From Patescibacteria group bacterium (GTDB taxonomy: Bacteria > Patescibacteriota > Minisyncoccia > 2-02-FULL-40-12 > GWA2-44-9), in assembly GCA_038064455.1 (NCBI GenBank), contig JBBTTB010000005.1, positions 21,983 through 85,982 of the forward strand: a DNA stretch of 64,000 nt, in the 5' to 3' direction. Below are positions 6,402 to 21,879 of the stretch, in pieces. Position 1 is the stretch's first letter. Every line of letters starts with the position of its first letter. The notes under the pieces are model-generated. The model made no database searches. It was not told the DNA's origin and saw only the letters and a list, made by a program, of their open reading frames with translations. Position numbers and translations under genes: made by a program.

Positions 6402-6926
6402 ATGTATTCTTCCGCGCCCTCACTTCGTAGCTCGTGGCTACTGCTCGCCATCCTTTGTGCGCTTCTCTGGGGGATCTCGTTTTTAATCCCGCTTACCTAT
6501 CCCATTATATATAGCTCCCTCGCGAGTGTCATTTTGTTTGGAGGTGTAGGGTGGACGGGACGCGTGCTCGTTACTGCATGGGTATGCGAAGTGTTGTTCG
6601 GTACTCTGTTTGGAACATACATACTGCCAACACTGTGTATGGTTGCCCTGTACGCGGTGTTTAGATCAATCGTTGTCATACATCCTATTGAAGACGTGCG
6701 CGCTCCATCGTTTTCTCAAATTGGCATTGCTCTTATCGGCGCCTACGTTCTCGCACTGGCTGGTTGGAGCATTGATGCAGTTGTCGTCCACTCCCTTTCT
6801 GGAGAGGCACTTCGTGCGTGGATGCCTCTCTGGGCGCGTTGGTCATGGATGCTCGCGAGCGCGTTTATTAGCGTTTCTCTATGGTTACTCGGGGTAGCGC
6901 TGGCGCGTGCTCGTCGCTTGGGGTAG
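6402..6926 (+). CDS. mreD: rod shape-determining protein MreD (polytopic membrane protein)
   Basis: The position mreB-mreC-X-PBP2 and about 174 aa of strongly hydrophobic sequence support MreD. The start is trimmed to the ATG at 6402, immediately after the mreC stop; the listed ORF start at 6255 overlaps mreC. Confidence 0.55.
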   Translation: MYSSAPSLRSSWLLLAILCALLWGISFLIPLTYPIIYSSLASVILFGGVGWTGRVLVTAWVCEVLFGTLFGTYILPTLCMVALYAVFRSIVVIHPIEDVRAPSFSQIGIALIGAYVLALAGWSIDAVVVHSLSGEALRAWMPLWARWSWMLASAFISVSLWLLGVALARARRLG

Positions 6927-6936
6927 AGTTGCAGAT

Positions 6937-8874
6937 ATGGCTCGATGGTCGTTTTTTAAGCGTCGCAACAATGCATACGCCGTCTCTCTTGATGGCGATG
7001 ATTGGGTTGCTCCAGAAGAAACGCTTGTTGACGTGGGGAGTAGCCACGTTGATCTGGAGCGCCCAGTGGATACTCGTATTTTCGCTCTCGCACGAGGTGC
7101 GGTGTGGCTTGTCGCTCTCGCACTGGTACTTGCTTCCGGGGCTCTTGCGATACAACAACATGAAACGCTCTCTGCCGCTGCTGAGTCGAATCGCACAGTA
7201 CAGATCTCCGTGAGTCCTCCTCGCGGCGCCATTGTAGATCGCACAGGAGTTCCGCTTGTGAAAAATACCCCAAGTTTTCAAATTGCTATCGTCTCTCGCG
7301 AGCTTCCAGCGACCCCTGAAGAACGTGAGGCGCTCTTCACAACAGTCGCTTCTATTCTCAAAGAAGACCCTGCGGTGCTCGTGCCGCAACTTCTTGAACG
7401 CGCACATGCGCAGAGCGTCTTTTTTGCTGCGACGGGCGTGCCAAAAGAAGCAACGGTGCAATTCTCCCAACTTTTGGGAAATGGCGTACACGTGGTAACT
7501 ACAACGGATCGCGCATATCTCAATGGCGAGCAATTTTCAACAGTGCTGGGATATACGGGACGGGTATCGGTTACCGATCGAGAGCGCGACACATCCTATG
7601 CGTCGTCTGATCGTGTTGGTCGCGCGGGGATAGAGGCCCAATATGAGCAAGAGCTCCGTGGTTCGCACGGGAGTATCACATTTTCGCGAGGAGAAGAAAG
7701 TGTCCAAAAAGATCCCATTCCGGGACACACGGTGGTGCTTGAAATAGATGCAGATGCGCAGAAGGCACTCTATAATAGTTTATTTTCAGTCTTACGGGGC
7801 GCAGCCGTTTCTGGGGCTGCTGCAATTGTGCAAGATCCACAAACGGGCGCCGTGCTAGGCATGGTGAGCTTCCCATCATATGATAACAACATATTCGCGG
7901 ATGGTATTTCACAAGGAGAATACCAGCGCTTGTTCACGTCATCGCGCAAGCCACTCTTTAATCGCGTCATCGGCGGCACCTATAACCCTGGCTCAACCAT
8001 TAAGCCATTTATTGGCATGGCAGCAGTAGAAGAGAATATTATCCGCCCATCCGACAATATTTGGGAGTGTGTAAACATCACCATTCCTAACCCGAGCAAT
8101 CCATCACGCCCGTATGTCTTTGAAAACTGGAGACCAGAGCATGGGCCGTTTAATCTTGCGCGAGCGATCGCAACGTCGTGCAATATTTACTTCTTTACTG
8201 TTGGCGGTGGACGCGATGCATTTCAAGGGCTAGGCATTGAGCGCATAGCTTCGTATCTGCAGAGGGCATTTGCTGATAAGGTGCTGGGCATTGATCTTCC
8301 GGGTGAGGTCGCTGGCTTTGTACCAACGTCGGCGTGGAAACAAGAAAAGCGTGGTGAGCCATGGTACCAAGGTGATACGTATAACGTTTCCATCGGCCAA
8401 GGAGATCTTTCCGTCTCTCCACTATGGATTAATGCGTATGTGAGCGCCATTGCAAACGGAGGGACACTCTACCAGCCACGCGTTGCACAGCGTATCCAGT
8501 ATGGCGCCGGCACTCCAGATACCGTGTTCGCACCAACCGAGCTTGCGAAGATGCCATTCAGTAGCACAACGATCGCGGCCATGCAAAAAGCAATGCGTGA
8601 GACGGTCCTCACGGGTACGGCAAAAATACTCCAAAATCTTCCCGTCTCATCTGCCGCAAAAACAGGTACGGCGGAAGTGACGAAGCATGGAAAGATCAAC
8701 TCACTCTTCACGGCGTTCGCGCCAGCAGAAAATCCAAAGGTTGCTATTACGGTGTTGGTGGAAAGCTCAATCTACAGCGAAGGATATGCAAGCCGCACGG
8801 CCCACGCATTCTTGAAATGGTTCTTTACGCGCCCATCCCCGTCATCCCCAGCGGAACCCTTGCCATCTTTGTAA
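6937..8874 (+). CDS. mrdA: penicillin-binding protein 2 (peptidoglycan D,D-transpeptidase, elongasome)
   Basis: Transpeptidase motifs STIKPF (SxxK) and KTGTAE, an N-terminal TM anchor, and a position after mreD. The start is trimmed to the ATG at 6937. Confidence 0.8.
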   Translation: MARWSFFKRRNNAYAVSLDGDDWVAPEETLVDVGSSHVDLERPVDTRIFALARGAVWLVALALVLASGALAIQQHETLSAAAESNRTVQISVSPPRGAIVDRTGVPLVKNTPSFQIAIVSRELPATPEEREALFTTVASILKEDPAVLVPQLLERAHAQSVFFAATGVPKEATVQFSQLLGNGVHVVTTTDRAYLNGEQFSTVLGYTGRVSVTDRERDTSYASSDRVGRAGIEAQYEQELRGSHGSITFSRGEESVQKDPIPGHTVVLEIDADAQKALYNSLFSVLRGAAVSGAAAIVQDPQTGAVLGMVSFPSYDNNIFADGISQGEYQRLFTSSRKPLFNRVIGGTYNPGSTIKPFIGMAAVEENIIRPSDNIWECVNITIPNPSNPSRPYVFENWRPEHGPFNLARAIATSCNIYFFTVGGGRDAFQGLGIERIASYLQRAFADKVLGIDLPGEVAGFVPTSAWKQEKRGEPWYQGDTYNVSIGQGDLSVSPLWINAYVSAIANGGTLYQPRVAQRIQYGAGTPDTVFAPTELAKMPFSSTTIAAMQKAMRETVLTGTAKILQNLPVSSAAKTGTAEVTKHGKINSLFTAFAPAENPKVAITVLVESSIYSEGYASRTAHAFLKWFFTRPSPSSPAEPLPSL

Positions 8875-8927
8875 AAGGGGAGTAGTATAGACCAACAGAA
8901 AAGCACCGCCGAGAGGCGGTTTAGTCT

Positions 8928-9389
8928 ATGGATACACAATATTTCAGCAAAGAAGGATTGGAAAAACTCAAGCAAGAGCTTACCGAACGCACCGAAACAG
9001 TGCGATCTGAAATCGCGCACCGTATTCGCGAGGCAAAAGAGCAAGGTGACTTGAGCGAGAACGCAGAATACGCAGAAGCAAAAGAAGCTCAAGCAATCAA
9101 CGAAGGTCGCATTGAAGAGCTCAAAGCAATCCTCGAGAATGCTGTCATTATTGATGATGAGCGTAAAAAGGGCGGTATCGTCGCTGTCGGTGCTTCCGTA
9201 AAGGTGGAATCAAAGAGCGGCTCAAGTACTTATACTATCGTTGGCCCCGCGGAATCAGACCCCGCACAAGGCTTCATCTCAAATGAATCTCCTCTCGGTT
9301 CTGCATTCCTTGGCCGCAAAAAAGGAGACTCTATCGATATCAAAACGCCTCGCGGCCTTATCACCTACAAGATCGTAGACGTGAAGTAG
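8928..9389 (+). CDS. greA: transcription elongation factor GreA
   Basis: 153 aa with an N-terminal coiled-coil containing acidic DLSENAEY and a C-terminal FKBP-like domain. Confidence 0.85.
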   Translation: MDTQYFSKEGLEKLKQELTERTETVRSEIAHRIREAKEQGDLSENAEYAEAKEAQAINEGRIEELKAILENAVIIDDERKKGGIVAVGASVKVESKSGSSTYTIVGPAESDPAQGFISNESPLGSAFLGRKKGDSIDIKTPRGLITYKIVDVK

Positions 9390-10938: not shown

Positions 10939-12213
10939 ATGCTCGACATTAAATTTATTAGAGAGAACGTAGACGCAGTAAAGAAAGCCATTGTACAAAA
11001 GGGCCTCACCCTTGATATCGCGGAACTTATTGCCGTTGACGAAAAACGCCGCACTGTAATGCAAAAGAGCGAATCTCTCCGCTCCGAGCAGAAAAAGACC
11101 GAGGACCGTGAAAAGGCGACTGCTTTAAAAGCTGAATTTAAAGAACTTGAGGCCGAGCTTGAGCTTATTGAAAAAGAGTACATGAGGTTGATGGCTCAAG
11201 TTCCGAATATCCCGTCAGAAGATACGCCAGTAGGGAAAGATGGGCATGATAATGTTGAAGTATTCAGCTCGGGCGACCTTCCGAAATTTGATTTTGAGCC
11301 AAAGGATCACATTGCATTAGCTAAGCGTTTGAATGTGATTGATTTTGAACGAGGGGCAAAGGTTGCTGGCTACCGTGGATACTATCTGAAAAATGAGGGC
11401 GCACAGTTAGCGCTGGCTTTAATGATGTTCGCGCTCAACAAAATGATTGCCAAAGGCTATCAGCCCATGATTCCGCCAACCCTCGTTAAGGGAGCGGCAT
11501 TATTTGGAAGCGGGTATTTTAAGGGGTTGGAATACGATCCCGCAGTAGATGAGATTTACGAAATTGCGTCTCAAGATCGTAATATGAGCGGGGAGCAAAG
11601 TAAAGAAAAGAAGTTTCTTGTGGGCACAGCCGAGCCCTCTCTTCTTGCGTACTATGGAAACGAGATAGTAAAGGAAGACGACTTACCCATTCGTATAGCT
11701 GGCTTTAGTCAGTGTTATCGGAGCGAGATTGGTAGTTACGGAAAAGACACCAAGGGCTTATATCGCGTCCATGAATTCATGAAGGTGGAGCAGGTGGTGA
11801 TAACAACCGCCGATGTTGCAGATAGCGACAAGCTTCAGCAAGAGATGACTCAGATCACCCGTGAGATTCATGCCGACCTTGGTTTGCCGTTCCGACAAAT
11901 TCAAATCTGTACTGGTGACATGGGGTTAGGCAAATACAAAATGTTTGATACTGAAGTCTGGCTTCCTGGCTCAAGGCGTTGGGCTGAAACAGGTTCGGCG
12001 AGCAACTTTTTAGATTGGCAGGCGCGTAGATTAAACATTCGATATACAACAAAGTCTGGCGAAAAGAAATTCGCGTATCTTTTGAATAACACCGCACTTC
12101 CAACCCCTCGTCCATTGATAGCAATTCTGGAGAATTACCAAACGAAGGACGGCACAATAAAAATTCCAGAAGTTCTTATCCCGTACATGGGGGGTAAGAA
12201 AGAAATCGTTTAA
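10939..12213 (+). CDS. serS: serine--tRNA ligase
   Basis: N-terminal coiled-coil (MLDIKFIREN...) and a class-II core (FSQCYRSE, GSASNF). Confidence 0.9.
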   Translation: MLDIKFIRENVDAVKKAIVQKGLTLDIAELIAVDEKRRTVMQKSESLRSEQKKTEDREKATALKAEFKELEAELELIEKEYMRLMAQVPNIPSEDTPVGKDGHDNVEVFSSGDLPKFDFEPKDHIALAKRLNVIDFERGAKVAGYRGYYLKNEGAQLALALMMFALNKMIAKGYQPMIPPTLVKGAALFGSGYFKGLEYDPAVDEIYEIASQDRNMSGEQSKEKKFLVGTAEPSLLAYYGNEIVKEDDLPIRIAGFSQCYRSEIGSYGKDTKGLYRVHEFMKVEQVVITTADVADSDKLQQEMTQITREIHADLGLPFRQIQICTGDMGLGKYKMFDTEVWLPGSRRWAETGSASNFLDWQARRLNIRYTTKSGEKKFAYLLNNTALPTPRPLIAILENYQTKDGTIKIPEVLIPYMGGKKEIV

Positions 12214-12214
12214 T

Positions 12215-13039
12215 ATGCCTGTACGTCCTCTCGCATCAACGTCCGTGCGCACGTCGGACCGATTTGCACGTCGGAGGGAGCGTCGCGAACGCATCATGCG
12301 CTGGAGCTTTGGTTCCGCTGCCACTGTGGCTATTGTGGGAAGCGTGTACACACTCTTTTTCTCACCGTGGCTTTCCGTGCGCTCGATAGGTGTGGAGGGC
12401 ATGCAGTCACTGGACCAAGAAACGCTCCTCGCCCACATTCATACAGAACGTGAGCGCCGCACATGGGGATACGCGCGTGAGCACTATATGATCCTTGCGC
12501 GTCCCGATCACATCGCGGCATCATTGATTGCCGCATTTCCTATACTTGAGACTGTCACTACAGATAAACAGTTTCCCCATTCCATCACATTCACGGTGCG
12601 TGAGCGTACTCCCGTTGCGCGCTGGTGCGTTGGTGAAGAGTGCGCGCTCATCGATGCTTCTGCGGTACGCTGGGACCCAATAGGCAACACCGCGCCCGAT
12701 AGTCTTCCTATGGTTCGCGATATGCGAAATGGTATGCGCTGGCCCCAGAGCGATACTGCCATTCTCAATATCATCGACACGCTTCTCCCACAGTTTCGTG
12801 CGATGCAGATCGAACCACTCTCATGGGATCTTCCAGAAACAGCAGTTCCAGAGCTCCGCATTCTTGTTGCCGGAGGAAGTGAGCTACGCTTCAGCTTAGA
12901 AGACGACATACAAAAACAAATTACCGTGCTTGCGGTGTTTTTGCGCGATACACCCGGCACTATCGGAGCGTATCAGTATCTCGACATGCGCATTCCGGGG
13001 CGCGTCTACGTAAAGAAAAGGGGAGAAAATACGCCGTAA
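12215..13039 (+). CDS. ftsQ: cell division protein FtsQ/DivIB-like (TM + POTRA domain)
   Basis: Basic N-terminus, a single TM, and a POTRA-like region SIGVEGMQSLDQETLL...ITFTVRERTPVARW. Confidence 0.6.
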   Translation: MPVRPLASTSVRTSDRFARRRERRERIMRWSFGSAATVAIVGSVYTLFFSPWLSVRSIGVEGMQSLDQETLLAHIHTERERRTWGYAREHYMILARPDHIAASLIAAFPILETVTTDKQFPHSITFTVRERTPVARWCVGEECALIDASAVRWDPIGNTAPDSLPMVRDMRNGMRWPQSDTAILNIIDTLLPQFRAMQIEPLSWDLPETAVPELRILVAGGSELRFSLEDDIQKQITVLAVFLRDTPGTIGAYQYLDMRIPGRVYVKKRGENTP

Positions 13040-13040
13040 T

Positions 13041-13575
13041 GGGGGCTATTGACTCGCTCGCTGGGTATGCTATAATAGATACAGCCTCCTAGTTCTTTAA
13101 ACAACCGGGCCGCAAGGCTCGGAAAAAGCAAAGAAGCAGTATTCCTTGTTTTTTCCGGGTCTTGATCTGCAGGTCTCGCCTGGGCACTGAAGCTTATGGA
13201 TGGTCAACGCGACCATGGAAGCGGTTTGCCGACCTCTACCGTATCCTGAAGGCCTGTCAAGCAGGTCGATACGCCAAAAAGCTTATGAGGCTGGTGTAAG
13301 TGTTTCGTAGTCGTCGGTGCGCATGGAGACGGCCAAGCCGCAACAGTGCTCAAGCGTTCGATTCTCGACGACGGTCTGGCGGAGCGGCGCGCCTCTATAC
13401 TCCCCAGATTTCCTAATCCAGGCCAATCGGCCTTCAGCTCCTTTCTTCTCCGCCACCGGGCTATTAAGCCCTCCGACGTTCCCGTTTTCCGCAAGTCAGG
13501 GCCATCGAGCCCTTCCGTTGCGGGCCAGTAGGCCCGCCTGCCCCCCAAAGCTTTTTGCTGCGGGGGGTACTTTTT
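13041..13575 (+). ncRNA. candidate ~0.5-kb structured non-coding RNA, class unresolved
   Basis: A 545-bp gap holding only short, low-complexity ORFs. The 5' GGGGGC (13041) is complementary to GCCCCC near the 3' end. There are several GC-rich hairpins, including a GCAA tetraloop, and the gap ends in a strong intrinsic terminator (CCCCCCAAAGC-TTTTT-GCTGCGGGGGG + T6) at about 13537..13575. Confidence 0.3.
13049..13076 (+). promoter_or_regulatory. sigma70-like promoter (TTGACT-16-TATAAT)
   Basis: TTGACT at 13049..13054 and TATAAT at 13071..13076 with a 16-nt spacer, sitting in a 545-bp gene-free gap. Confidence 0.45.
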
Positions 13576-13584
13576 TATACAAAC

Positions 13585-15015
13585 CTACGGAAGTACGAGC
13601 ACGAGCGTGCCGTCAGAGATGCGCACCCTACTGTATTGCTCTGGAGAGAGATACAGAATGTTTTTGATCTGTTGCTGTTCTTCGGTGAACGTTTGCGTGA
13701 GGAAGCGGATCGGTGCGCTCTGGGCAGTAGTACGTGCAATAATGATCACCGGCCCGCCGTGTTCGCGGATGCGCTTGAGCATAGAGACATCATCAGCGCG
13801 ATAAAGCTCGCGGACATCAGGGTTTGTGCCCCAAATGACGTGCGCACGCACTGTTTCTGCAACGCCCATAGCGAGCACAAACGTGAGTGCAACCATAACC
13901 GCGGTCAAAGCTCCTTCCTGCACGTGCATGCTTCCGTGTGGCAAACGCACACTCAAATCATGAGGGTGCTTGGCGTGATACCAGTCAGCGAGGCGATCCA
14001 TGAACCACCACAGAGCTTGTCCTGCAAAGAGGAATACCACCGGCGCAATGCTCGCAAGGCGTATGGTTACGCGCAGATCATCGATGAGGGCTCCTCCCAC
14101 AAGGCCACAGAAGAACCATGCAACAAGAAGCGTGTGGGTCGGCGATACGTGGCTGCTTCCGTTGAGCTCCTTAAGGATCTTAATGATATTGCGCAAGAGC
14201 CCAGTGAGCGCGAGCGCAGCTACGGGCCAGAACACGAGCGAGCTTCCTACGATGCCATTCTGCCATTGCGTAATGCTAGGCATAAAAAGCCGCGCGAGCG
14301 CCGTGCGAACGCCGGCGCTCCAATCTGCAACAAGCGCGGTGCCTGCAGATGCGGGCAAAATGTTTTGTGCGCCAAAATATGAAACGAGCAAGAGCGCAAC
14401 AATACCAAAGAGAATAAATCCATTCCGCAGTGAATCATGCGCGCGTTGTGCACGAGCATCCTGCGTGTGTACACGCGTCATGTGGAAATACACCGCCGCG
14501 GCGATCGCGCCAGCAAGGAGCATGGGGCGTGCAAGGGTGTGTGTAGAGAGCGCCGCCGCCCAGATAATAGCCGCCGCCGCAAAGGTACCATGCGTGTGAG
14601 TAGCGAGGGCCATCCACAGCGCATAGAATCCCCACGTCGCAAAGAAGGCGAGGCTTGCTTCAGGGAGTGCGGTGCGTGAAATGAGGAAATACCAGAACGA
14701 ACCCGCGTAGAGAATGCTGGAAAGCGAAGCGATCTCCCACGAAAACAGTCTGCGTGCGAGGAAATAGAGGCCGGCAACCGACCCAATGCCAAAGAGAAGT
14801 GATGGAATGCGCGCTGCCCATGGGGTTGGGCCAAAAATGTGGATAGATACGTTTTGGAGTACGCCGTACACGCCGCTTTCTGGTTCTGCGAGAACGCGAA
14901 TAGCGTGTTGTGCTTCGCTACCAGAGATGCCAGCAGGAATACCACCGATATTAAACAACGAAACAACGAGCGTACCGAGGATAAGTGCGCCAAGCGCGAT
15001 TCGATGTAGATGCAT
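13585..15015 (-). CDS. GT-C fold membrane glycosyltransferase (ArnT/PMT, GT39/GT83-like)
   Basis: About 476 aa with roughly 11-13 TM helices and an N-terminal MHLHRIALGALILG...GIPAGISGSE loop typical of ArnT/PMT-like enzymes. Start chosen at the ATG at 15015; the listed 606-aa ORF carries a 130-aa low-complexity extension that overlaps the divergent gene. Confidence 0.6.
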   Translation of the reverse strand: MHLHRIALGALILGTLVVSLFNIGGIPAGISGSEAQHAIRVLAEPESGVYGVLQNVSIHIFGPTPWAARIPSLLFGIGSVAGLYFLARRLFSWEIASLSSILYAGSFWYFLISRTALPEASLAFFATWGFYALWMALATHTHGTFAAAAIIWAAALSTHTLARPMLLAGAIAAAVYFHMTRVHTQDARAQRAHDSLRNGFILFGIVALLLVSYFGAQNILPASAGTALVADWSAGVRTALARLFMPSITQWQNGIVGSSLVFWPVAALALTGLLRNIIKILKELNGSSHVSPTHTLLVAWFFCGLVGGALIDDLRVTIRLASIAPVVFLFAGQALWWFMDRLADWYHAKHPHDLSVRLPHGSMHVQEGALTAVMVALTFVLAMGVAETVRAHVIWGTNPDVRELYRADDVSMLKRIREHGGPVIIIARTTAQSAPIRFLTQTFTEEQQQIKNILYLSPEQYSRVRISDGTLVLVLP

Positions 15016-15089
15016 AATGGTAAAATATAGCACATTATGCGCAGGAGATGGGCTTGGACAAGTGGAAAGTGTGATATACTTTCCACTGT

Positions 15090-15485
15090 ATGAGTGAAGA
15101 AACACACGTCCAAATTGAGCAAGACATTCGTCGCCTTGAAAGTGAGCTCGCAAAGAAGCGTGCCACGCGCGATAGCGCCGTAGAGCAGAATGCAGGGGAG
15201 CAACATGATGACCAAGCGGCACTTCGTGAGGTAGTGCGTGAACACATTGTAGGTGCTCCAGCGCCAGCACCCGTTGAAGGGCACGGGCCCGCGGTTCCAT
15301 TAAACGATGATCAGGTTTCGCAGGTGCAAGCATTGGTACAAACAGCTCTTTCCGACGGTCTTGATGCCGCAGTGGTAGCCGCGCGCGCGACAAACAACCC
15401 TGCACTCATCGATGCTCTGCATGACGCGCTCGCGGACGTGTACTGGAAAGAAATGCTCCAGCGCGGTTTTGTAAAAGCACTCTAA
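15090..15485 (+). CDS. hypothetical protein (coiled-coil N-terminus, Ala/Pro-rich)
   Basis: 131 aa, divergent from the glycosyltransferase and directly upstream of the VirD4-like gene. Confidence 0.4.
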   Translation: MSEETHVQIEQDIRRLESELAKKRATRDSAVEQNAGEQHDDQAALREVVREHIVGAPAPAPVEGHGPAVPLNDDQVSQVQALVQTALSDGLDAAVVAARATNNPALIDALHDALADVYWKEMLQRGFVKAL

Positions 15486-21805: not shown

Positions 21806-21879
21806 TGCGGGGTCGTCTAATGGTAGGACAGCGGCCTTTGAAGCCGTGAATCTTGGTTCGAGTCCAGGCCCCGCAGCCA
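21806..21879 (+). tRNA. tRNA-Gln (anticodon UUG)
   Basis: Manually folded cloverleaf. Acceptor TGCGGGG/CCCCGCA with U1:A72 and G73 as in bacterial tRNA-Gln, D-arm GTCT/GGAC, anticodon stem GCGGC/GCCGT with loop CTTTGAA, T-arm CTTGG-TTCGAGT-CCAGG and an encoded CCA. Confidence 0.8.

Follow-up and report, generated by a model that had tools for sequence, protein, structure and literature searches.

A candidate noncoding RNA gene with a boxA-like leader and a strain-variable body in one clade of Patescibacteria

What occupies the 545-nucleotide (nt) gap between an ftsQ-like gene and a convergent glycosyltransferase gene in a Patescibacteria genome? The gap lies at 13040–13584 of a 64,000-nt stretch, called the window here, from contig JBBTTB010000005.1, part of the metagenome-assembled genome of a Patescibacteria group bacterium. 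An earlier reading of the window's letters, the original prediction, placed in the gap a structured RNA of about 0.5 kb that was either a divergent housekeeping RNA or a new large noncoding RNA. Our analysis upholds the second half of that proposal and not the first. We put at roughly 85–90% the probability that the gap is a genuine, independently transcribed noncoding RNA gene whose family was previously undescribed. Specifically, we predict an untranslated, stand-alone RNA of ~494 nt on the + strand, ~13083–13576, made from a strong sigma-70 promoter and ended by an intrinsic terminator. Its known occurrences are best explained by an RNA family confined to one Patescibacteria clade (Paceibacteria-type). 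Patescibacteria genomes measure ~0.6 Mb and hold very little noncoding DNA, and to our knowledge, almost nothing is known about regulatory RNAs in these organisms. A full-text literature search for Patescibacteria noncoding RNAs returned nothing relevant. Because genomes of this size have so little noncoding DNA, an RNA gene of 0.3–0.7 kb under strong purifying selection likely plays an important role.

Predicted transcription signals bound the gene. At the 5′ end, a sigma-70-type promoter (13049–13076, + strand) reads TTGACT-16-TATAAT and matches 11 of 12 hexamer positions. Its -35 hexamer TTGACT occupies 13049–13054, its -10 hexamer TATAAT occupies 13071–13076, a TG at 13068–13069 provides an extended -10 element, and the predicted start is ~13083. 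At the 3′ end, an intrinsic terminator (13541–13576, + strand) consists of a hairpin at 13541–13567 (CCCCCCAAAGC/GCUGCGGGGGG) followed by six T residues at 13571–13576. The stop codon of the convergent glycosyltransferase gene is 9 nt away. A simple scan for terminators missed this one because the hairpin contains an internal loop. The near-consensus promoter and the very strong terminator had both been called from the letters, and both calls hold. By contrast, the proposal that the extreme ends of the gap pair with each other fails: GGGGGC (13041–13046) is unconserved in relatives and, being upstream of the -35 hexamer, falls outside the predicted transcript, while GCCCCCC is the 5′ arm of the terminator hairpin. 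Compared with shuffled sequences, the gap folds better on the + strand (z = -3.75) and no better on the - strand (z = -1.45).

Is this element under selection? Relatives of the same genus were located via exact-protein look-ups, and they comprise one lineage represented by loci L001/L003 and L002, the last from the complete 615-kb genome CP129474.1, and another represented by L004/L005, from the Hainich aquifer. Within the genus, LysRS is 95% identical in protein, and identity at fourfold-degenerate sites, measured in the lysS and herA-like genes, is just 39–53% between the three lineages; thus, neutral sites are saturated. Three parts of the locus are nonetheless near-invariant: the promoter hexamers and TG, with a spacer that is partly variable, the first ~82 nt of the RNA, and a ~100-nt 3′ block, terminator loop included. 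Between them, both sequence and length vary, giving gaps of 322–545 nt. Given that the promoter, the 5′ ~82 nt, and the 3′ block have stayed near-invariant while neutral sites are saturated, the pattern seen in the alignments is the mark that selection leaves on an RNA or DNA element, as opposed to a protein. Conservation does not extend to the whole 0.5 kb as a single structured unit, as the original prediction had it: only ~82 nt at the 5′ end are held family-wide, and ~100 nt at the 3′ end are held in the genus. Within the genus, the terminator is conserved in sequence, loop included, and all homologues end with a GC hairpin and a U-run.

These data bear on the reading in which the locus is a relic without function, such as a promoter and leader duplicated from an rRNA operon, lacking the gene and followed by decaying intergenic DNA. 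The anatomy is indeed leader-like, with a strong promoter, a boxA-like motif, and hairpins; moreover, the body is unconserved, and the element is missing from several related lineages. Decay does not account for ~110 nt that are near-invariant despite saturated synonymous sites, for compensatory changes that keep helices intact, or for a consensus promoter in five lineages. We consider a relic very unlikely.

How far does the family extend? The next relatives beyond the genus have LysRS proteins only 66% identical, and a covariance model still recognizes the promoter and the 5′ ~82 nt where LysRS identity is ~63–66%. Ten distant relatives were chosen via a LysRS search, and DNA was obtained from all of them except P0016. 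Loci L152, L156, and L160 show the same ftsQ–gap–PMT arrangement and a recognizable 5′ module. A covariance model, R1, built from seven sequences found a further locus outside the model, L161/L162, at E = 7e-6, in the gap between greA and lysS. Promoters with TG in L152, L156, L160, and L161 score 11–12/12, and that of L161 scores 12/12. Homologues therefore exist in six further lineages of the clade, seven including the window. No copy of the element occurs within ±10 kb of the syntenic site in L153, L154, L157, or L158. In L161 (5531–5536) and L154 (14932–14964), ftsQ and the glycosyltransferase gene almost abut (4–31 nt), and thus, the RNA gene is an insertion/deletion polymorphism of the ftsQ/glycosyltransferase junction. 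When metagenomes were scanned for the 18-mer GCAAGGCTCGGAAAAAGC, 66 loci came back, and the single real one is a Hainich contig (L137 = L004), and no further homologues were found in the metagenome, viral-contig, and phage-genome collections scanned. Searches with the FtsQ-like and GT39 proteins led to only 2–4 clusters. Scanning the genome collection with SerRS of the window led to the wrong relatives, as the window serS gene appears to be a xenologous replacement (see below), and the resulting loci, L006–L085, served as negative controls only.

Could the gap instead encode one or more small proteins? It contains open reading frames (ORFs) of 45–116 amino acids (aa), and an internal AGGAGG is present in L001, L002, and L004. 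However, of these ORFs, described originally as low-complexity and overlapping, none has a Pfam match, and none is conserved. When relatives are compared in translation, all three frames of either strand show similarity, and the frame shifts between lineages because 4-nt and 1-nt indels lie inside conserved blocks. Thus, conservation operates at the nucleotide level and not on coding. The genus shares nothing with L152, L156, L160, and L161 outside the RNA core, and the longest + strand ORF runs through the terminator. We looked in the relatives for the conserved coding frame that the original prediction had named as evidence against an RNA and found none. The probability of a coding explanation is close to negligible. 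A new noncoding RNA accords with the conserved promoter plus terminator, the lack of a conserved ORF, compensatory helices, and homologues in seven lineages.

If the gap makes an RNA, is it a familiar one? We compared the DNA with the 4227 families of Rfam release 15, applying gathering scores to the whole 64 kb and permissive E-values to the gap and its homologues. At E<=10, the interval 12950–13650 gave only chance matches of microRNA type on a hairpin, and at E<=1, nothing was found in seven homologous loci (L152, L156, L160, L161, L001, L002, L004). ARAGORN, run on the window and six homologous loci, detected no transfer-messenger RNA (tmRNA), and neither a tRNA-like domain nor a tag ORF was found. 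The earlier failure to match the gap to RNase P, tmRNA, or signal recognition particle (SRP) RNA by eye is therefore borne out by the models. Across the 64 kb, Rfam and ARAGORN together report one tRNA (tRNA-Gln, 21806–21879) and no further known RNA.

Individual candidates were rejected on specific grounds. RNase P of types A and B gave no RNaseP_bact_a/b match in the 64 kb at the gathering score, in the gap at E<=10, or in the seven loci at E<=1. An RNase P architecture with P1-type closing and a conserved core conflicts with a body that is unrelated between lineages and with an end pairing that would use bases upstream of the -35 hexamer. For tmRNA, the ARAGORN and Rfam models were both without a match. 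SRP RNA has no Rfam match, and the long hairpin of the genus (HL, described below) is a near-perfect A/U-rich duplex free of symmetric or asymmetric loops; 6S RNA likewise has no Rfam match, and the genus form contains no bubble. Resemblances to 5S rRNA, RNase P CR-I, and SRP RNA noticed by eye in the tails were unsupported by any model. A highly divergent RNase P, tmRNA, SRP, or 6S RNA would fit the size of the gene and its stand-alone promoter and terminator, and Patescibacteria do have unusual RNAs. Weighing against this idea, no Rfam match appears even at permissive thresholds in the window and seven loci, the region expected to hold a catalytic or binding core is unconserved, and the closing helix deduced from the gap's ends lies outside the transcript. 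The element is also absent near the syntenic site in four relatives and occupies a different intergenic gap in one lineage. A housekeeping RNA is accordingly extremely unlikely.

What is conserved across the family is a 5′ core of three parts: single-stranded AGUUCUUU(AA), a hairpin called H1, and a longer hairpin called HL. In the window, the single-stranded leader covers 13083–13104 (+ strand) and carries a boxA-like core, GUUCUUUAA(ACAA), at 13092–13104. H1 follows at 13105–13122 (+ strand) as CCGGGCC-GCAA-GGCUCGG, with a predicted energy of -13.8 kcal/mol, and is predicted to be the first hairpin to form on the nascent RNA. It is the one GNRA-capped hairpin that remains of those reported from the letters. 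A hairpin is kept at the H1 position in every lineage, with differing sequence: GGGCUUC-CAAA/GCAA-GAGGCCC in L152 and L156, CCGGGUCUUC-UCAC-GAAGCCCGG in L160, and GGGGCCC-N8-GGGACCC in L161. Because MAFFT did not place these hairpins in register, H1 was compared by direct reading and by folding. When H1 is aligned on its loop, direct reading of the genus against L152/L156 shows 5/7 pairs changed on both sides with pairing retained.

HL (13113–13164, + strand) is a 52-nt hairpin with 23-nt arms, CAAGGCUCGGAAAAAGCAA.GAA and UUC.UUGUUUUUUCCGGGUCUUG, and consists of an outer stem plus the A/U-rich helix H2. The A/U-rich stem singled out originally, CGGAAAAA...UUUUUUCCG, is part of this larger hairpin. 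The arms of H2 are GAAAAAGC(C)...(G)GCUUUUUC. The tip of H2 spans 14 nt in the genus and is a 95–130-nt structured insert in other lineages; in this insert, the motif CAAGUAAGA is conserved and a helix covaries, with arms such as CUUAUUC/GAAUAAG, GUAUUUC/GGAAUAC, or GUAUUC/GAAUAC. Directly 3′ of H2 lies a near-copy of the 5′ arm of H1. This copy pairs with the loop and 3′ arm of H1, lengthening H2 into HL. Since HL takes up these parts of H1, the two hairpins are mutually exclusive. In the HL alignment, 87% of cells are paired and 6/22 pairs are compensatory, versus 33–59% of cells paired when the partners are slid by 1–3 columns. L161, which is outside the HL count, adds a swap of GCC/GGC to GGC/GCC.

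The two hairpins are predicted to form in order. The nascent RNA folds into H1 in 8/8 sequences (-6 to -14 kcal/mol), and the complete module favors HL over an H1-enforced conformer by 3–11 kcal/mol, again in 8/8 sequences. Since every sequence is predicted to fold into H1 when nascent and into HL when complete, the folding models indicate that the family conserves a programmed refolding step, beyond a mere hairpin. The H1-to-HL rearrangement would be a compact natural case of programmed co-transcriptional refolding.

Two mutually exclusive, conserved helices are a hallmark of attenuators, and one must ask whether the 5′ module is a cis-acting leader that governs transcription continuing downstream. 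Its targets would be, in the window, antisense RNA over the glycosyltransferase gene and then p131/herA-like/gtrA/dnaX, and, in L161, the lysS-serS-ftsQ operon. Several features suit this idea. In L152, an intrinsic terminator directly follows the module; in L161, the element sits upstream of lysS in the same orientation; and a Nus-modified polymerase could read through a terminator. Genomic context argues the other way, as no same-strand gene comes next in 7/8 contexts, and the strong 3′ terminators are separated from the switch by 190–550 nt of unrelated sequence and do not overlap it. Moreover, in L161, lysS has its own promoter-like site past the terminator. No riboswitch or T-box model in Rfam matches, and such elements were rejected also on the grounds that, in the window and six other contexts, the gene that follows points toward the RNA gene. 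We regard attenuation as a distinctly unlikely role.

What might the single-stranded leader do? The leader's sole invariant block is AGUUCUUU(A), with A10 G11 T12 T13 C14 T16 T17 A18 invariant in seven aligned sequences from four lineages, and the fifth lineage, L161, found later by the model, likewise carries AGUUCUUUA. Written in sequence letters, the motif is AGUUCUUUAA. It begins 8–12 nt past the predicted start in all five lineages and is unpaired in every fold. The core is whole in L160 and L161 (GUUCUUUAU) and reduced in L152 (GUUCUUUUC). The motif resembles the form of boxA found in rRNA (rrn) operons of Gram-positive bacteria, UGUUCUUUGAAAAC. At 13092–13102, the window sequence GUUCUUUAAAC matches the published consensus for the NusB/NusE binding site, GYTCTTTAANA (PMC5725501), at 9/9 core and 10/11 overall positions. 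On sequence grounds, boxA is the best-supported hypothesis for the leader, short of demonstrated.

The same leader invites another explanation, namely, that the transcript is a trans-acting, base-pairing small RNA (sRNA). Its 5′ end, AGCCUCCUAGUUCUUUAAACAA in the genus, would be the seed, pairing, for example, through CCUCC (13085–13089) with Shine-Dalgarno (SD) sequences, and HL would stabilize the RNA. The 5′ end, the most conserved stretch, stays unpaired in every fold; the genus possesses the anti-SD-like CCUCC; and a strong promoter and terminator are typical of sRNA genes. However, CCUCC is genus-specific and is not kept outside the genus. The window contains no perfect complement of the conserved core, and with one mismatch allowed, it contains 20 matches versus 12.6 expected, a level reached in 3/100 shuffles, with no obvious target among them. 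At 270–740 nt, the RNA is long for the seed type, and the H1/HL alternative is left unexplained. An sRNA of this kind is unlikely.

Returning to the boxA reading, we consider a specific arrangement in which the module is a package akin to the lambda nut site and rRNA leaders: NusB-S10 on boxA, resistance to Rho, the switch from H1 to HL, and a duplex that RNase III can cut. This package as a whole is the mechanism that we consider most likely, at slightly less than even odds. During emergence of the RNA, H1 would fold and the putative boxA would be bound by the NusB-S10(NusE) dimer. A complex of Nus factors would assemble on RNA polymerase, as occurs at rRNA and CRISPR leaders, and would shield the long untranslated transcript from Rho and aid its folding. 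When transcription has passed the downstream near-copy of the 5′ arm of H1, HL would displace H1, leaving boxA and the released arm single-stranded, and the resulting 20–22 bp duplex would offer a plausible RNase III site. The variable body would then be transcribed through to the terminator. What the sequences show is the gene-like anatomy, its conservation, the lack of coding, the two alternative helices with compensatory changes, and the hypervariable body; binding by Nus factors, the sequence of folding events in vivo, processing, and the role of the mature RNA are what we infer. A precedent for the protective step exists, as boxA elements shield long untranslated CRISPR transcripts from Rho (PMC7665894). 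If abundant, the boxA-bearing 5′ module may also titrate NusB-S10 and thereby feed back on ribosome synthesis.

The likeness to rRNA-operon leaders and lambda nut is in the order of parts: a strong promoter, a boxA-like GYUCUUUAA near the 5′ end of an untranslated transcript, and, as in the boxA-boxB order of lambda, a short spacer followed by a hairpin with a GNRA-type cap. As in rRNA leaders, a long duplex and possible RNase III site lies nearby. The differences are that neither rRNA nor phage genes follow, that the hairpin is built for displacement, and that Nus binding is putative. In addition, the H1 loop is variable here (GCAA, CAAA, UCAC, 8 nt), unlike in lambda nut, and because it is not conserved, a loop reader similar to the N protein is unlikely.

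Beyond HL, the body of the RNA spans 190–550 nt and is unrelated between lineages: we found no motif common to the tails of different lineages and no blastn similarity between bodies. In the window, the center of the body (13165–13369, + strand) is homologous only to the center of L001/L003 and is unrelated to L002, L004, L152, L156, L160, and L161. The clearest case of divergence comes from L001 and L002, whose flanking genes are 98–99% identical. The RNA center is the sole stretch below 90% identity in 3.9 kb, and its identity, 26%, equals the shuffled level of 27%, which argues that the center was replaced and not mutated. The replaced segments are L001 6951–7190 and L002 6951–7135, with breakpoints just after HL and just before UUUCCUCAU. 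Conversely, the window and L001, which belong to different species, share 47% identity per column in the center versus a shuffled mean of 30% and maximum of 42%. Their common predicted fold has 59 pairs, 12 of them compensatory, a circular count in that the structure was derived from the two sequences it scores. Because only two sequences contribute and the structure comes from the same two, the shared fold is suggestive only. A "type B" body common to L002 and L004 was considered and dropped: the centers are at random identity, and only the 3′ block is common to both. A helix that would join the 5′ leader to the tail over a long range was dropped as well, as duplex energies were not consistently better than those with shuffled tails.

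Downstream of the center, the window carries the genus-conserved 3′ block (13370–13432, + strand), which reads GACGGUCUGGCGGAG...GCCUC.AUAC.CCCCAGAUUUCCU.AUCC and includes the hairpin GGCC-AAUC-GGCC. In the fold predicted in common for the window and L001, helix 10 of this block has 13 pairs, 2 of them compensatory. No counterpart of the block is recognizable in L152, L156, L160, or L161. An insertion of ~105 nt (13433–13540, + strand) comes next; it is specific to the window and absent from L001, L002, and L004. It holds three further H1-like GC hairpins (13458–13471, 13499–13512, and 13519–13536) separated by C/U-rich linkers. H1-like GC hairpins cluster in the RNA gene and occur almost nowhere else in the 64 kb, and direct repeats D1 and D2 link the hairpins of the insertion to H1.

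The pattern of replacement suggests a bolder idea: a hypervariable RNA gene in which promoter, boxA, and bistable hairpin form a conserved, nut-like launch pad for a repeat-less cassette body that recombines between co-existing strains and species. Cassette exchange would account both for the unrelated L001 and L002 bodies in genomes 98–99% identical and for the body type shared by the window and L001 across species. This idea is a long shot. If true, the body would carry strain-specific recognition, e.g., of host, phage, or kin, in these episymbiotic bacteria. In any case, replacement of the body between near-identical strains provides a handle for population-genomic and functional work.

Is the body an array? 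Arrays of the CRISPR and TIGR (tandem interspaced guide RNA) types were rejected as candidates, TIGR features being taken from PMC12045711. Such arrays alternate spacers with tandem repeats of 25–36 nt or with dual repeats of 8–12 nt and box C/D, next to a cas or tas gene. The body contains neither tandem nor interspaced repeats, only scattered two-copy repeats of 9–16 nt, and therefore is neither type of array; the neighboring genes encode FtsQ-like, GT39, and HerA-like proteins. There is a resemblance to the boxA leaders of CRISPR arrays (Stringer et al. 2020, PMC7665894), namely, a conserved leader, a long, strain-variable, noncoding body, and a terminator. Unlike CRISPR arrays, the body lacks repeats, no cas or tas genes are nearby, and the differences between bodies look like replacement of a whole segment and not like gain or loss of units.

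Several observations weigh against parts of this account. The promoter, start site, and terminator are sequence predictions. Covariation information comes from only five independent lineages, and while the pair counts beat the controls, the sample is small. The boxA assignment is a match of 9–11 nt in the letters that was recognized after the fact. By itself, the 9-mer is not significant, with 5 copies in the 64 kb versus 1.2 expected and the other four inside coding sequence; the relatives keep mainly GUUCUUU, L156 having GUUCCUUUU; and no rRNA operon was among the fetched clade loci. For these reasons, we treat boxA as a hypothesis. Regarding the body, folding z-scores of the tails are uneven (-0.3 to -4.9), and if the body is important enough to require antitermination, the present account does not say why it is unconserved. 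Finally, since the L152 terminator comes directly after the 5′ module, the body there may lie outside the RNA.

The L152 locus has further features of its own. At 13764–13937, its 16-bp A-tract/U-tract terminator overlaps a second promoter-like site (TTGAGG-18-TAAAAT with TG), and a separate unit of ~120 nt with its own strong terminator comes next. By these signals, L152 may encode a second small RNA. Approximately 12 kb upstream of the RNA, at 446–1408, L152 also carries a reverse-transcriptase-like gene (weak RVT_1 match) that, not being adjacent, is probably unrelated.

The sole 16S leader at hand is that of L013, a metagenome-assembled genome (MAG) of a distant Moraniibacteria member, and it has AAUCUUUCAAAAC. 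From 27F site to anti-SD end, the L013 16S gene (6724–9068) measures ~2.3 kb. This length implies that ~0.8 kb has been inserted, and the extra sequence looks like an ORF. Insertions in rRNA genes of the Candidate Phyla Radiation are known.

Where does the RNA belong among known kinds? Like OLE, ROOL, GOLLD, raiA, and HEARO RNAs, it is the product of a stand-alone gene of several hundred nt with structured parts and unclear function. Those RNAs are conserved and ornate over most of the molecule and have Rfam entries; in the present family, only the 5′ ~80–200 nt are conserved and no Rfam match exists. Like 6S and CsrB/RsmZ RNAs, it has a strong promoter, a terminator, and repeated hairpins (four H1-like ones in the window), and the number of modules varies. 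It differs from 6S RNA in having no central bubble, HL of the genus being a near-perfect duplex. It differs from protein-titrating RNAs in that the repeated hairpins of the window conserve stems and not loops and occur in the window lineage only. The family thus combines two known kinds, the stand-alone bacterial noncoding RNA and the boxA-type leader, in an unusual arrangement, with a conserved, bistable launch module and a strain-swapped, repeat-less body. It has no equivalent in Rfam and is restricted to a rare clade. If the leader is truly boxA, loading of Nus factors would apply here to a transcript other than rRNA or a CRISPR array, and the mechanism would extend to a candidate phylum in which it is unstudied.

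We note, finally, several features of the genes that surround the RNA. The 5′ neighbor (12215–13039, + strand) encodes an FtsQ-like POTRA protein identical to NCBI AAB463_00890 (Patescibacteria group bacterium) and is the last gene of a conserved block consisting of mreC, a small unnamed ORF, pbp2, greA, lysS, serS, and ftsQ. Within this block, the window SerRS (10939–12213, + strand) shares just ~36% identity with its syntenic counterpart in the closest relatives, and its best matches, at ~60%, are in Wolfebacteria-type MAGs. The neighboring LysRS, GT39, and HerA-like proteins are 89–96% identical to those of the relatives. From these identities, serS looks like a xenologous replacement in place. 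The 3′ neighbor is the convergent GT39/PMT_2 glycosyltransferase gene (- strand; stop codon at 13585). Its ORF, 13585–15405 by mechanical call, specifies 606 aa, while the homologues have 476–483 aa, and a conserved 131-aa gene on the + strand (15090–15485) overlaps the 5′ part of the ORF. Given the shorter homologues and this overlap, the true glycosyltransferase start is probably near 15030.

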